From a virus (Duplodnaviria > Caudoviricetes), in IMG/VR virus record IMGVR_UViG_3300042868_003570, positions 1 through 61,990 of that record: a stretch of DNA of 61,990 nt; one strand, written 5' to 3'. This document shows positions 52,207-56,490 of this stretch, piece after piece. How positions within the stretch are numbered: the first letter of the stretch is position 1; each line of letters starts with the position of its first letter. The notes beneath the pieces are model-generated. The model did not search any database. It was not told the DNA's origin and saw nothing but the letters and a program-made list of their open reading frames with translations. The translations under genes were made by a program, and so were the position numbers.

Positions 52207-53139
52207 ATGGCTATTTCACGCGCACAACTGCTCAAAGAGCTGCTCCCCGGTCTGAACGCCCTGTTTGGCATGGAGTACTCTCGTTACGGCGAAGAGCACA
52301 AGGAACTCTACGAGACCGAGAAATCGGAGCGTAGCTTTGAAGAAGAGACCAAGCTGGCTGGCTTCAGCGCTGCACCTGTCAAGAGCGAGGGTTCTGCCAT
52401 CGCTTATGACAATGCGCAAGAGGCGTTCACTGCCCGCTACACCCACGAGACCATTGCTCTGGGCTTCTCGATCACCGAAGAGGCGGTTGAGGACAACCTG
52501 TACGACAGCCTGTCTGCTCGTTACACCAAAGCTCTGGCCCGCGCCATGTCCTACACCAAGCAGGTCAAGGCTGCAGCCGTTGTCAACAACGGTTTCAACG
52601 GCTCGTATCTCGGCGGTGACGGTGTCACGTTGTTTGGCAACAACAGCTCCAACACTCGTGTTGGCCACCCGCTCGTTGGCGGCGGTGTCAACTTCAACAG
52701 CCCAACCACGGGCGTTGACTTGAACGAGACTGCTCTGGAAAACGCTGTGATTCAAATCGCTGCGTGGACCGATGAGCGTGGTCTGCTGATTGCTGCCAAG
52801 CCGCGCAAGATGGTGATCCCTCCGGCCCTGATGTTCGTTGCCAAGCGTCTGCTTGACACTGAGCTGCGGGTTTCCACTGCTGATAACGACATCAACGCGA
52901 TCAAGCAGATGGGCGCTATCCCAGAAGGCTACACGGTCAACCACTTCTTCACCGATCCGAACGCATGGTTCCTGTGCACTGACGTTCCCAACGGCATGAA
53001 GCACTTTGAGCGTATGCCTTTGTCAAACTCAATGGACGGTGATTTTGATACTGGCAACGTGCGCTACAAGGCCCGCGAGCGTTACAGTTTTGGCTGGTCT
53101 GACCCCCTCGGCATGTGGGGTTCGTCAGGTTCGTCCTGA
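52207..53139 (+). CDS. Major capsid protein (Mu gpT-like HK97 fold)
   Basis: MAISRAQLLKELLPGLNALFG; DFDTGNVRYKARERYSFGWSDP; followed by a terminator. Confidence 0.92.
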   Translation: MAISRAQLLKELLPGLNALFGMEYSRYGEEHKELYETEKSERSFEEETKLAGFSAAPVKSEGSAIAYDNAQEAFTARYTHETIALGFSITEEAVEDNLYDSLSARYTKALARAMSYTKQVKAAAVVNNGFNGSYLGGDGVTLFGNNSSNTRVGHPLVGGGVNFNSPTTGVDLNETALENAVIQIAAWTDERGLLIAAKPRKMVIPPALMFVAKRLLDTELRVSTADNDINAIKQMGAIPEGYTVNHFFTDPNAWFLCTDVPNGMKHFERMPLSNSMDGDFDTGNVRYKARERYSFGWSDPLGMWGSSGSS

Positions 53140-53160
53140 TTTTGTAGGGTAATCCCTAGT

Positions 53161-53189
53161 AAAAACGGCCCTTCGGGGCCGTTTTTCTT
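53161..53189 (+). terminator. Intrinsic terminator after the major capsid gene
   Basis: AAAAACGGCCC-TTCG-GGGCCGTTTTT. Confidence 0.9.
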
Positions 53190-53240
53190 TGCCTGCGTAC
53201 GGTGTACACTGTTACCTGTGTCAAACCACAGGAGCACCAC

Positions 53241-53861
53241 ATGGACACCGCAACACTACCCAAGACCCGTGCCGATGCAAAGGCGACGGGGGCATCGCAC
53301 TACTTCACTGGAGAGCCCTGCAAGCACGGCCACATTGCCCCCCGCAAAACCAAAGGCGCGTGTGTTGAGTGCCTCAAGGTTGAGTGGGCTCTCGGCAACA
53401 CAGAGCGGGCGGAGTACTTCCGTGAGTACAACCGTTCAGACGCAGGTAAGGAGGCAAAACAGCGGTACTACGAGGCTAACAAACCAGCCGTAGTTGCTAA
53501 AGCGCGGGCAACCCCCAACGCACTGAAGAACGCGTATCGAAAGAGGTGGAAAGAAGAAAACACGTTGCAAGTTTTGGCGGATAACAAGGTGCGTCGGCGT
53601 AAACACCGGACAGCTACACCCCCGTGGATGACGCGCAGGCAAAAAAGTGAGATACGCTCCATGTACCAAGCCGCTATTCTGTCGTCCAAGATTACGGGGG
53701 AGAAGTACGTTGTGGACCACATCTACCCGTTGCGCTCAGAAGTCGTTTGTGGGCTGCATGTGCCGTGGAACTTGCGCATCATTACGCAGCAACAGAATTT
53801 GCAAAAATCAAACGCCATGCCGGGAGACGAAGAAGCGCTTGCGTTCCCCCCAAAGCCGTGA
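53241..53861 (+). CDS. Freestanding HNH homing endonuclease
   Basis: YFTGEPCKHGH, CVEC, VDHIYPL...GLHVPWNL...N..KSN. Confidence 0.9.
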   Translation: MDTATLPKTRADAKATGASHYFTGEPCKHGHIAPRKTKGACVECLKVEWALGNTERAEYFREYNRSDAGKEAKQRYYEANKPAVVAKARATPNALKNAYRKRWKEENTLQVLADNKVRRRKHRTATPPWMTRRQKSEIRSMYQAAILSSKITGEKYVVDHIYPLRSEVVCGLHVPWNLRIITQQQNLQKSNAMPGDEEALAFPPKP

Positions 53862-53867
53862 TACAAA
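53839..53867 (+). promoter_or_regulatory. Sigma70-like promoter TTGCGT-N17-TACAAA with extended -10 TG
   Basis: -35 at 53839-53844, TG 53859-53860, -10 at 53862-53867. Confidence 0.55.
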
Positions 53868-53876
53868 CACCGTATT

Positions 53877-53951
53877 CCGGGGTTCCCGGCGTTCTGACAG
53901 TCCCGGCTGACGACATGCAGACAGAACGCCCACAATACTCGCATGTGAGGA
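53877..53951 (+). ncRNA. Candidate cis-regulatory leader RNA with interlocked pairings
   Basis: GGCGTTCTG/CAGAACGCC stem, CCGGG/CCCGG and ACATGC/GCATGT crossing pairings; the last abuts the GAGGA RBS. Confidence 0.6.
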
Positions 53952-53955
53952 AATC

Positions 53956-54474
53956 ATGGCTAATACCACCTTCAACGGCCCAGTTCGTTCCGAGAATGGC
54001 TTTCAAACCATCTCCACCAACGCTACAACGGGTGCGGTTACTGTCACCAGCACGCTTGGCGTCACCACCAGCGTGACCAACTTGACTGCGACGAACTTGG
54101 TCTTCACCGACCAAAACCACCCAACGACAGCCGCAATTAACGCCACTGCAACAGCCACTGCTGCTGAAGTTGCCACTGGCTACATCACCTCCACCTCGGC
54201 TGCCGCAACGACCATCACGCTGCCTACGGGCACGGCGCTTGGTGCTGCTATTAGTGCTGTTAAAGGTACCGTTCTCGATCTGTACGTGGACAACACTGGG
54301 GGCGCATCGACCGTGACCATTGCGGTTGCTACCAACGGCATCTTGTCCAGCGCTGCTGCGGACACTCCAGGCTCGTTTGGTGACTTGACCATTGCCGCTG
54401 GTGCCACGGGCCTTGCCCGGTTCACCATCATGTTCTCCAGTGCCACCGCCTACGTGTTTACCCGTACGGCTTAA
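53956..54474 (+). CDS. Virion structural protein (head fibre/decoration-like)
   Basis: MANTTFNGPVRSENGF; Thr/Ala-rich, TITLPT. Confidence 0.75.
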   Translation: MANTTFNGPVRSENGFQTISTNATTGAVTVTSTLGVTTSVTNLTATNLVFTDQNHPTTAAINATATATAAEVATGYITSTSAAATTITLPTGTALGAAISAVKGTVLDLYVDNTGGASTVTIAVATNGILSSAAADTPGSFGDLTIAAGATGLARFTIMFSSATAYVFTRTA

Positions 54475-54486
54475 TAGGAGCGCATC

Positions 54487-54768
54487 ATGACGATGCAAAC
54501 AGACGTTAAGGCGGCGCACGCCGAAGCCACAGGCACAATTGTCTCTGGACGAAACCGCCTGAAGGGGTATCAGTGCATATCGGGCGGGACGGCGGGCGAT
54601 ATTATTTTTAGAGACGGGGGAGCTTCCGGCACTATCCGTCTGCAATTTAACATTGGTACAGGCACGCAGCCAATTGGGCTACCAATTCCGGGCGAGGGCA
54701 TCCTGTACTACACAGACATTCACGTTACGCTTCCAACAAGCGCGAAAGTGACGGTGTTTTATGGCTAA
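54487..54768 (+). CDS. Small structural protein
   Basis: IPGEGIL...VTVFYG. Confidence 0.7.
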   Translation: MTMQTDVKAAHAEATGTIVSGRNRLKGYQCISGGTAGDIIFRDGGASGTIRLQFNIGTGTQPIGLPIPGEGILYYTDIHVTLPTSAKVTVFYG

Positions 54769-55015
54769 GTCACCCGCATGGACACGCAAAGAAGGCAAGT
54801 CGGAAAAGGGTGGCTTGAACGCCAAGGGGCGGGCGTCCTACAACAAGGCCAATCCGGGAAAACCCGGACTGAAAGCCCCCCAGCCCGAGGGCGGCAGCAG
54901 GCGCGACTCTTTCTGTGCCCGTATGACCGGCATGAAAAAGAAGTTGACCAGCGAGAAGACTGCCAAAGACCCCAACAGCCGCATCAACAAGAGCCTTCGG
55001 GCGTGGAAATGCTGA
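54761..55015 (+). CDS. Small basic protein (DUF6321-like)
   Basis: PAWTRKEGK...GGLNAKGR...RRDSFCARM...SLRAWKC. Confidence 0.75.
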   Translation: MAKSPAWTRKEGKSEKGGLNAKGRASYNKANPGKPGLKAPQPEGGSRRDSFCARMTGMKKKLTSEKTAKDPNSRINKSLRAWKC

Positions 55016-55452: not shown

Positions 55453-55728
55453 ATGAGAGCGAGTCGCGGGATGGGGGACATCAACCCCTCCAAAATGCCC
55501 GGTGGAGTCAAGAAGGCTCGCAGGGACGACACCGACTTCACGCAGTACGCTGAAGGCGGCAAGGTCAACGCGGCTGGCAACTACACCAAGCCTGAGTTGC
55601 GCAAGCGCATCTTGTCGCAAGTCAAGGCCGCTGCCACACAAGGCACGGGCGCTGGGCAGTGGAGCGCGAGAAAAGCACAGCTTGTTGCCAAAAAGTACAA
55701 AGCCGCAGGGGGTTCTTACCGTGACTGA
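55453..55728 (+). CDS. Small basic protein
   Basis: NYTKPELRKR...GQWSARKAQLVAKKYKAAGG. Confidence 0.75.
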   Translation: MRASRGMGDINPSKMPGGVKKARRDDTDFTQYAEGGKVNAAGNYTKPELRKRILSQVKAAATQGTGAGQWSARKAQLVAKKYKAAGGSYRD

Positions 55729-56101
55729 TAGCGCAACACAAAAGCAAACTCAGCAGAGCAGAGAAGCCGACATAGCTAAGTTGGCGCTTGAGTTGAAGAA
55801 ACTCAATGAAGCGCACAAACAGGCGGGAGTTGAACGCCTGTCTAAGTCCGCCAGTAAAGCTGACCGTGAGTTGGCAGATTCGTGGAAAAAAAGTCTTTCC
55901 AGCGGCACAGCAACGATGATTCAGGACAAAGACGGCGCTGGGCGTCGGATTGGTCCAGATGGTCGCCCCATAGGCCCGGAACTTAAAAAAGTTGACGGCG
56001 AGTACAAAACTGAGACCAAGAAAAAAGGCGGCGTTGTATCTGCTTCCAAACGTGCAGACGGCATCGCCCAACGTGGCAAAACTCGCGGTCAAATGAGATG
56101 A
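55721..56101 (+). CDS. Protein ending in SKRADGIAQRGKTRGQMR
   Basis: GTG 55721 overlapping the upstream stop; C-terminus identical to that of the 56143 gene. Confidence 0.65.
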   Translation: MTDSATQKQTQQSREADIAKLALELKKLNEAHKQAGVERLSKSASKADRELADSWKKSLSSGTATMIQDKDGAGRRIGPDGRPIGPELKKVDGEYKTETKKKGGVVSASKRADGIAQRGKTRGQMR

Positions 56102-56142
56102 AAGCCACCCAAAGTGGCAGCAAAAACGGCGAGGTACAGATA

Positions 56143-56490
56143 ATGGCTAACGAAGAACTCTTGCCAGAAGGCGAAATGAGCAGCGGGGATGGAGCGCAGC
56201 TTAAAAAAGACATTGCCCGCATGGACAAATTCAACAAAGTTGCCTCCAAAAAAGGAGTCAATAATGTGCCCTTAAAGCTGCGCAAATACGCCCCGGTGTC
56301 GGGGGATTTATCAGACCCCAAGACTATGGCCGCGTATCAAGCCGGTGAGTACATGGCCGGTGCAGGCCGGGGTAAGCAGGGTGGCCCTACGGCCAAGGAA
56401 GTCCAAGGATATAAGGTGGGCGGTACGGTTGCGTCCAAACGCGCAGACGGCATTGCCCAGCGCGGCAAGACTCGCGGTCAAATGAGATGA
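56143..56490 (+). CDS. Protein ending in SKRADGIAQRGKTRGQMR
   Basis: GAGGT RBS before ATG 56143 (alternative start 56098). Confidence 0.7.
   Translation: MANEELLPEGEMSSGDGAQLKKDIARMDKFNKVASKKGVNNVPLKLRKYAPVSGDLSDPKTMAAYQAGEYMAGAGRGKQGGPTAKEVQGYKVGGTVASKRADGIAQRGKTRGQMR

Follow-up and report, generated by a model that had tools for sequence, protein, structure and literature searches.

A covarying double-pseudoknot 5' leader next to the ribosome-binding site of a probable capsid-accessory gene in Caudoviricetes

Introduction

Mu-gpT-DE (RF03012), which Rfam types as 'Gene; sRNA' (small RNA) and whose function is not known, appears to be the closest described relative of the element reported here, a double-pseudoknot 5' leader in IMG/VR virus record IMGVR_UViG_3300042868_003570 (Duplodnaviria; Caudoviricetes). 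The window analysed is this complete record of 61,990 bp, with a CheckV completeness of 98%. The leader lies at bases 53874-53955, in front of a gene for a 172-amino-acid (aa) protein that is likely to serve as a spike, cement or minor protein of the capsid.

SAM-II/SAM-V, preQ1-II, guanidine-III and fluoride riboswitches are small H-type pseudoknots in 5' leaders, with the 3' strand at or over the ribosome site and with conserved junction nucleotides. Riboswitches that sequester the Shine-Dalgarno (SD) sequence have one pseudoknot and serve metabolism or transport genes, whereas here two pseudoknots interlock in front of a virion protein gene. In hepatitis delta virus (HDV)-like ribozymes the helices follow the order P1, P2, P3, P3', P1', P4, P4', P2', with cleavage 5' of P1; the order in our leader is different, and it has no equivalent of P3 or P4. 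The E. coli S4 alpha-operon double pseudoknot and the S15 pseudoknot are autoregulatory leaders bound by their own product. The pseudoknotted leader of T4 gene 32, bound by that gene's product, is likewise autoregulatory (PMC10690425, section 2.6). Like these, our element is a pseudoknotted leader adjoining the ribosome site of a gene whose product would be needed in set amounts, but it has no sequence or model similarity to them.

Flaviviral exoribonuclease-resistant RNAs (xrRNAs), as portrayed in PMC8374639, consist of a stem with an inner hairpin; their 5' end pairs into the junction, a second pseudoknot latches the fold to the 3' tail, and they also stop the bacterial RNase J1. The resemblance of our leader to them is topological only: a fold centred on a junction, a 5' end paired into it (helix PK1) and a second pseudoknot as latch. 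xrRNAs are built on a three-way junction of hairpins with a ring of 15-16 nucleotides (nt) and are found in the 3' untranslated regions of RNA viruses, where the enzyme they act on loads upstream; our leader, unlike them, starts at a predicted primary 5' end and ends at the ribosome site.

Fremin et al. (2023) listed 8495 candidate RNAs from IMG/VR (PMC10690425). The leader is not described in the main text of that study and may be among its candidates, unnamed. The available part of the Minerva preprint holds nothing on it, and no description of it was found in the literature searched.

Results

The element is the 5' leader of the messenger RNA (mRNA) of the gene at 53956-54474. Its strands follow the order a-b-a'-c-b'-c', that of a double pseudoknot, over about 70 nt; the full helix order is PK1, P1, P2, PK1', P2', PK2, P1', PK2', and P1 encloses P2 together with a 12-nt junction (Table 1). 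A first-pass annotation, made from the sequence alone, had proposed PK1, P1 and PK2. The strands of P1 and PK2 could be read directly in the sequence where it had placed them, as could the GAGGA and the ATG at 53956 directly after PK2. Its PK1 pairing was also real, with the 3' strand at 53902-53906 rather than at 53901-53905. P2, a fourth helix of 3 bp, was absent from that annotation. This helix covaries, with variants CTAG/CTAG, CGG/CCG, CTG/CAG and CCG/CGG and with middle-pair counts of AU 67, GC 9, UA 5 and CG 4; hence the 5' strand has as its partner a loop that belongs to a very small hairpin.

Relatives were collected by searching viral contigs with the 172-aa protein, which gave 567 among 598 candidate stretches, the best 80 being kept; after two more rounds of searching from divergent members there were 194 loci in all. 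An ATG and an upstream stretch of 110 nt or more were present in 187 of them; with the window added, these made up 89 unique leaders in 87 distinct rows. In an unfitted MAFFT alignment of the 89 leaders (2047 cells), 93.4% of the cells were paired, compared with 84.1% after shuffling, and 20 of the 24 pairs had changed on both sides; none of 500 shuffles reached any of these measures, and slid partners gave at most 42.5%. In this alignment the 9-bp P1 of the window stands out of register with the 10-bp majority. A covariance model was built from P1 and P2 only, and the pseudoknots were not fitted in the resulting alignment. Here 98.0% of the cells were paired among the 87 distinct leaders, against 84.2% in shuffles and at most 49.0% with slid partners, and double changes were again present in 20 of the 24 pairs, a result that 0 of 500 shuffles reached. 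The covariation check on homologous leaders thus upheld all three helices of the first pass.

RNAalifold independently recovered P1 and P2. A helix parser found all four helices in 193 of 224 unique leaders; its 31 failures mostly came from a bulge or mismatch in P1, and two of those leaders lacked the motif. The 193 parsed leaders held 51 distinct strand sequences for P1, 7 for P2, 16 for PK1 and 13 for PK2. In shuffled tails the longest duplex averaged 3.4-3.9 bp. At the fifth pair of PK2 we counted GC 55, AU 28 and UG 2. G-U pairs were frequent on the 3' strand of P1 (two pairs, for instance, showed GU 22 and UG 28), and because they occur on the + strand only, the fold belongs to the + strand RNA.

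The nested minimum-energy fold of the single sequence was unremarkable, at -26.3 kcal/mol compared with -25.0 +/- 3.5 kcal/mol for shuffles (z = -0.37), and 63 of 200 shuffles folded as well. The interleaved arrangement of 5, 9 and 6 bp, examined post hoc, did not occur in any of 20,000 mononucleotide shuffles of 53874-53958, and a perfect helix of at least 9 bp arose in 153 of the 20,000. An alternative 5' hairpin, P0, can form between 53877-81 and 53885-89. It showed no covariation beyond shuffles (91.5% paired versus 91.1%, with 114 of 500 shuffles as high), and no counterpart was found by eye in the marine forms. P0 was accordingly rejected as the second state of a switch.

Table 1. Features of the leader and its surroundings in the window, and leaders in cultured phages
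Feature	Position	Strand	Details
Major capsid protein gene (Mu gpT-like / HK97-fold)	52207..53139	+	PHROG major head protein E 1.8e-17; Pfam Phage_capsid_4 E 1.7e-11, Mu-like_gpT E 4.5e-5
Intrinsic terminator after capsid gene	53166..53190	+	6-bp G+C stem, TTCG loop, T run; read by eye
HNH / endonuclease VII-like gene, outside the RNA element	53202..53861	+	PHROG endonuclease VII E 3.4e-12, HNH endonuclease E 0.0059
Predicted sigma-70-type promoter	53839..53867	+	TTGCGT, 17 nt, TACAAA; TG two bases before -10; read by eye
PK1, 5' strand CCGGG	53877..53881	+	pairs with CCCGG 53902-53906; 99.3% of cells paired; 5/5 pairs changed on both sides
P1, 5' strand GGCGTTCTG	53888..53896	+	pairs with 53922-53930; 97.2% paired; 10/10 model pairs changed on both sides
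Junction J1, one unpaired A separating P1 from P2	53897..53897	+	surrounding GAC at least 90% conserved
P2 hairpin, CAG 53898-53900 / CTG 53907-53909	53898..53909	+	100% paired; loop T-CCCGG contains PK1 3' strand 53902-53906
Junction J2, ACG, unpaired	53910..53912	+	ACG in 185/193 parsed leaders (AC demanded by the parser)
PK2, 5' strand ACATGC, within P1 loop	53913..53918	+	pairs with 53941-53946; 97.0% paired
Junction J3, AGA, unpaired	53919..53921	+	AGA in 193/193 parsed leaders (parser accepted A[AG]A); marine forms conserve AGA too
P1, 3' strand CAGAACGCC	53922..53930	+	pairs with P1 5' strand 53888-53896
PK2, 3' strand GCATGT	53941..53946	+	flush against the SD sequence
SD sequence GAGGA 53947-53951, spacer, ATG 53956	53947..53958	+	
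Putative regulated gene, 172-aa protein, conserved N-terminus MANTTFNGPVRSENGF	53956..54474	+	no Pfam family; PHROG with function not assigned
Leader in Pelagibacter phage HTVC023P	before gp41		model 37.7 bits, E 1.4e-6
Leader in lake phage DSL-LC04	before its 'cement protein'		model 23.4 bits
Leader in HTVC027P	before gp62		model 11.6 bits

The placement of the leader between promoter and start codon was conserved as well. In nearly all relatives the order is capsid gene, terminator, promoter, about 9 nt, motif, SD and ATG, with TTG..-17-TATATT or TATAAA at the place of the window's promoter. The promoter and the capsid terminator of the window are manual readings, and a scanner for promoter and terminator consensus sequences called neither. 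Of 184 unique leaders, 154 were parsed for a -10-like hexamer; its distance to PK1 was 9 nt in 133 and 8-10 nt in 144 of these. Transcription from such a position would start 1-3 nt ahead of the knot, and in the window PK1 lies 2-3 nt downstream of a predicted start at about A53874. At the other end, RAGG stood directly 3' of the PK2 3' strand in 171 of 173 parsed unique leaders, and the distance from the end of PK2 to the ATG was 8-14 nt. Third positions vary freely over codons 1-20 of the gene (1.4 bits versus 0.8-0.9), which means that the conserved RNA element stops at the start codon. The first-pass interpretation was thus upheld in part, for a structured leader reaching from the predicted transcription start to the ribosome-binding site; this leader proved to be conserved.

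The relation of PK2 to the SD varies among relatives. In two loci (L029 and L075) PK2 is a plain anti-SD/SD duplex, and in the second marine type it covers the first AGG of AGGAGG. Terminator-like sites downstream were no commoner than in shuffled sequence (23 versus 21.1 +/- 4.3). Logan contigs of relatives from four metatranscriptome runs touch the end of the capsid gene, the leader and the gene; such contigs cannot show starts, strands or levels, and nothing was drawn from them.

With the covariance model, 88 of 89 sources gave a single site each, one copy per genome, whose end was in every case at the start codon; the source without a site was L048. Beyond the motif sites it gave three unrelated weak matches (E 0.32), and in the whole record of the window it had a single match. 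An exact 19-nt core pattern occurred in at least 120 viral stretches. The leader was found in freshwater contigs and in the cultured phages HTVC023P and HTVC027P, which have SAR11 hosts, and DSL-LC04. Only the covariance model and the capsid gene led to these cultured members: a BLAST search of cultured phages with the 87-nt leader returned chance matches only (best E 0.8), and tblastn of the 172-aa protein against them returned none at 1e-3. Marine leaders are rewritten in every helix, for example PK1 ACUAUAC/GUAUAGU, P2 CG/CG and PK2 CCUAG/CUAGG, yet they keep the A, ACG and AGA junctions. The model matched 33 of the 37 unique marine leaders at E <= 1. HTVC027P represents the second marine form, in which all four helices can be read in spite of the low model score.

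Nine further contigs (L196-L204) that carry the motif and the phage gene come from bins labelled Nitrosomonadales, Armatimonadetes, Acidibacter, Caulobacteraceae, Chloroflexota, Nanopelagicales and others. They are probably phage DNA mis-binned into genomes, and we dropped host inference from them, since the labels span many phyla and the contigs carry the phage gene. Planktothrix phage Pag-Yong1 (L324:3404-3510) has a different leader at the same position, in which the loop of a GC-rich hairpin is complementary to the SD region of a 'minor capsid protein' gene; judged by this complementarity, its ribosome site seems to be clamped by another structure.

We compared the leader with catalogued RNAs by scans with the Rfam 15 models, which gave no match to it at E <= 10 (window 53000-55000), E <= 1 (nine loci) or E <= 5 (six loci). 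SAM-II, SAM-V, preQ1-II/III, guanidine-III, fluoride, HDV-like, twister, pistol and hatchet models were among those without a leader match in these scans, and the first-pass remark that the fold is not of the SAM-II/V or HDV-like kind agrees with this. The model of RF03012 did not match 53862-53958 at E <= 10 either (gathering score 49 bits). Its best match in the whole record, 12.4 bits at 53214-53243, lies inside the HNH gene, and it had none in 15 other loci (E <= 1 or 5). In contrast, true Mu-gpT-DE members, fetched via the printed consensus, scored 55.6-74.7 bits in seven cases of seven. Conversely, the leader's own model misses Mu-gpT-DE members, with a best score at a motif site of 9.2 bits (E 5.6).

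Nevertheless, the two classes have much in common. Mu-gpT-DE also follows a Mu gpT-like capsid gene, a terminator and a promoter, ends at the start codon of the next gene, and precedes a gene with the same N-terminal module, M[AG]xTTFxGP. The common skeleton is a P1 ending in CUG, an A, a P2 of CAG...CUG, AC, a junction of 12-13 nt ending in GA, and a P1' starting with CAG, and in both classes a strand of the junction pairs with a stretch at the ribosome site. The dimensions differ. Mu-gpT-DE has 53 positions, with a P1 of 4 bp whose 3' strand is part of the SD (CAGGAG), whereas here P1 has 9-11 bp and ends at 53930 in the window, where the SD starts at 53947. Its P2 has 5-7 bp and no loop pairing to the 5' tail, that is, no PK1; here P2 has 2-4 bp and a loop tied to the 5' end. 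The pseudoknot of Mu-gpT-DE covers the start codon, and ours sits just before the SD. The 13-nt junction of Mu-gpT-DE is complementary to the start codon and codon 2 (L410 onward, e.g. L424:2150-2202, - strand) and covaries with codon 2: GGT accompanies ACCCA in 54 of 59 cases, and GCT accompanies (T)AGCCA in 19 of 22; the Rfam structure line of RF03012 does not contain this pseudoknot.

On the strength of these sequence comparisons, both classes look like variants of one design in which a junction strand clamps the ribosome site, and our leader would be a larger relative of Mu-gpT-DE that fails the RF03012 model. The novelty proposed by the first pass holds insofar as no Rfam model matches, and is reduced by this kinship with a catalogued motif. 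The authors' own (ZWD) version of Mu-gpT-DE differs from Rfam's, and the leader may already fall within it.

The protein encoded after the leader has relatives in large number, at least 4799 cluster representatives at E <= 0.001 among 8000 scored. We read 119 loci with the core pattern; an open reading frame (ORF) followed directly after the motif in 115 of them, and 109 of these 115 ORFs begin M..T.[FYH]..GP. The genes after the motif (L205-L323) have about 16 N-terminal residues in common; beyond residue 30 they form 19 clusters unrelated to one another, and lengths range over 61-236 aa. The RNA and the 16-residue module would thus form a constant head on swappable C-terminal domains. A constant head with swappable domains is the pattern of virion fibres and spikes, and in these sequences it points to a modular family of capsid-attached proteins. 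The GenBank labels on positional counterparts are 'minor capsid protein' and 'cement protein'.

The AlphaFold2 model of the 172-aa protein is mediocre (predicted local distance difference test, pLDDT, 66.5). Foldseek found no solved structure at E <= 0.001, the best being the capsid spike of phage Pa223 with a weak E of 4e-3, and the predicted viral look-alikes of the model include fibre and collagen-repeat proteins. A language-model atlas search with the protein returned only unnamed viral clusters. A Pfam search found no recognisable RNA-binding domain in the product. Pentapeptide repeats resembling T-A-T-N-L, in variable number, precede a conserved VFTDQNHP (54090-54110 in the window, and in relatives), and protein lengths are 164-182 aa.

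In the window, the order of genes and signals is terminase, portal, scaffold-like genes, major capsid gene, terminator, HNH gene, promoter, leader and 172-aa gene. The major capsid gene is the upstream neighbour of the leader in all relatives, and its product shares 60-70% identity with the capsid proteins of HTVC023P-type phages. The terminator after it aligns with terminator-like parts of several Rfam models, and in relatives the same terminator sits just before the promoter of the leader. The HNH gene looks like a homing-endonuclease insertion that spared the promoter and the RNA, because most relatives lack it and have the terminator directly followed by the promoter. Its stop codon falls within the spacer of the leader promoter. 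Further downstream, the neighbouring ORFs at 55502-56101 and 56098-56490 share identical last 19 residues, ASKRADGIAQRGKTRGQMR.

Discussion

What the leader does we infer from its fold, which rests on covariation, and from its placement and distribution. Our preferred reading, to which we give about an even chance (roughly 0.5), is that it would be a cis-acting translational gate for a capsid-accessory protein which also hides the 5' end. The loop of P2 would pair with the first nucleotides of the transcript (PK1), and the 5' end of the message would thereby be hidden; the junction would pair with the six nucleotides flush against the SD (PK2), giving a rigid knot beside the ribosome-binding site. 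This knot, which in sister classes would lie over the SD, would limit or condition the loading of the 30S subunit, and translation would be lowered. The trigger might be a protein, for example the gene product in its unassembled state or a different late protein of the phage, or there might be none, in which case a fixed throttle would set stoichiometry relative to the capsid protein. We favour a protein or no trigger, both ahead of a metabolite, because the leader is tied to one virion gene family and no second conformer covaries. Translational control is supported by the junction strand, whose pairing partner, in our leader as in the sister classes, invariably adjoins or overlaps the ribosome site.

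Several points weigh against such a gate. The SD itself is unpaired in the class of the window, so that occlusion may be weak, and the knot could equally well present the ribosome site. Since the sole alternative conformer, P0, does not covary, a static structure fits better than a two-state switch. The gene has a promoter to itself and seems to encode a virion protein made in abundance, which sits oddly with repression. Nature also provides exceptions: in a deletion at L021:2931-3003 (on a contig shared with L142) the -10 box is fused to the last junction bases, and the 3' third and the gene are kept, but PK1, P2 and the 5' strands of P1 and PK2 have been lost; and a close homologue of the 172-aa gene (L048:2911-3003) has unrelated upstream sequence without a model match. 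As to autoregulation by the gene product, the link of the leader to the N-terminal module (109 of 115) may be mere adjacency.

The same knot might instead be purely protective, stabilising a heavily used late mRNA against decay that depends on the 5' end (by RppH and RNase E, or RNase J), at the extreme as an exoribonuclease-resistant fold, with no translational role. 5'-terminal stem-loops stabilise the E. coli ompA and T7 late mRNAs, a precedent in its favour. The fixed distance from the -10 to PK1 (9 nt in 133 of 154), with about 2 nt unpaired at the 5' end, would suit this purpose, and the layout resembles that of flaviviral xrRNAs as given in PMC8374639. However, xrRNAs act inside an RNA and not at a primary 5' end, and a secondary structure cannot show the threading of a ring. 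A plain hairpin would be enough for protection, Mu-gpT-DE has no PK1, and neither the lock of PK2 to the SD (171 of 173) nor the cover of the SD in sister classes would be explained; we therefore consider this role rather unlikely. We hold it quite improbable that a small molecule or an ion makes the double pseudoknot more stable and thereby closes, or frees, the ribosome site. A compact size of about 70 nt would be in keeping with such a riboswitch, as would the placing of a pseudoknot at the SD, an architecture used by several small classes such as SAM-II/V and preQ1-II. The seven conserved unpaired junction nucleotides (A, ACG, AGA), present from AT-rich marine to GC-rich freshwater leaders, are reminiscent of binding pockets, but they are equally expected of a protein site or of a purely structural core. 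Moreover, the leader serves one virion gene family without a metabolic link, 109 of 115 pattern matches preceding the same N-terminal module, and we found neither a covarying alternative fold nor a match to a known riboswitch model.

Roles other than that of a cis-acting leader, namely a trans-acting sRNA derived from it, a self-cleaving ribozyme trimming the 5' end or an antitermination RNA for a long late operon, seem to us highly improbable. The Rfam typing of Mu-gpT-DE as an sRNA suggests the first of these, but there is no terminator between leader and gene, and only 8-14 nt separate PK2 from the ATG. A double pseudoknot at the 5' end recalls HDV-like ribozymes; the helix order is unlike theirs, no ribozyme model matches, and the fixed promoter distance implies that the 5' end is set by initiation and not by cleavage. 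HK022 put is an antitermination RNA that modifies the polymerase, and our leader recalls it in its position, with a promoter directly before it and a long run of + strand genes behind. Against this, downstream terminator-like sites are at the level of shuffles (23 versus 21.1 +/- 4.3).

In summary, the translational gate remains our preferred reading of a leader that is not rare, since the protein family it precedes has at least 4799 cluster representatives, and that occurs in cultured SAR11 phages and is conserved across thousands of uncultured phages from lakes and the ocean. Structural work would have a clean target in this double pseudoknot of about 70 nt, whose marine and freshwater forms differ by full compensatory rewriting. 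It is an unlikely prospect that the leader represents a new class of sensing RNA in phages that rank among Earth's most abundant, be it a riboswitch that lets a metabolite of the host or of the infection state time capsid-spike synthesis, or the first phage-encoded nuclease-proof 5' knot; if either were true, the orphan motif Mu-gpT-DE would gain a function too. The link between the two classes recasts the 'downstream element' Mu-gpT-DE as a 5' leader that would bury the ribosome site of the next gene, and it may give access to the way in which podoviruses adjust the level of a capsid accessory protein to that of the major capsid protein.

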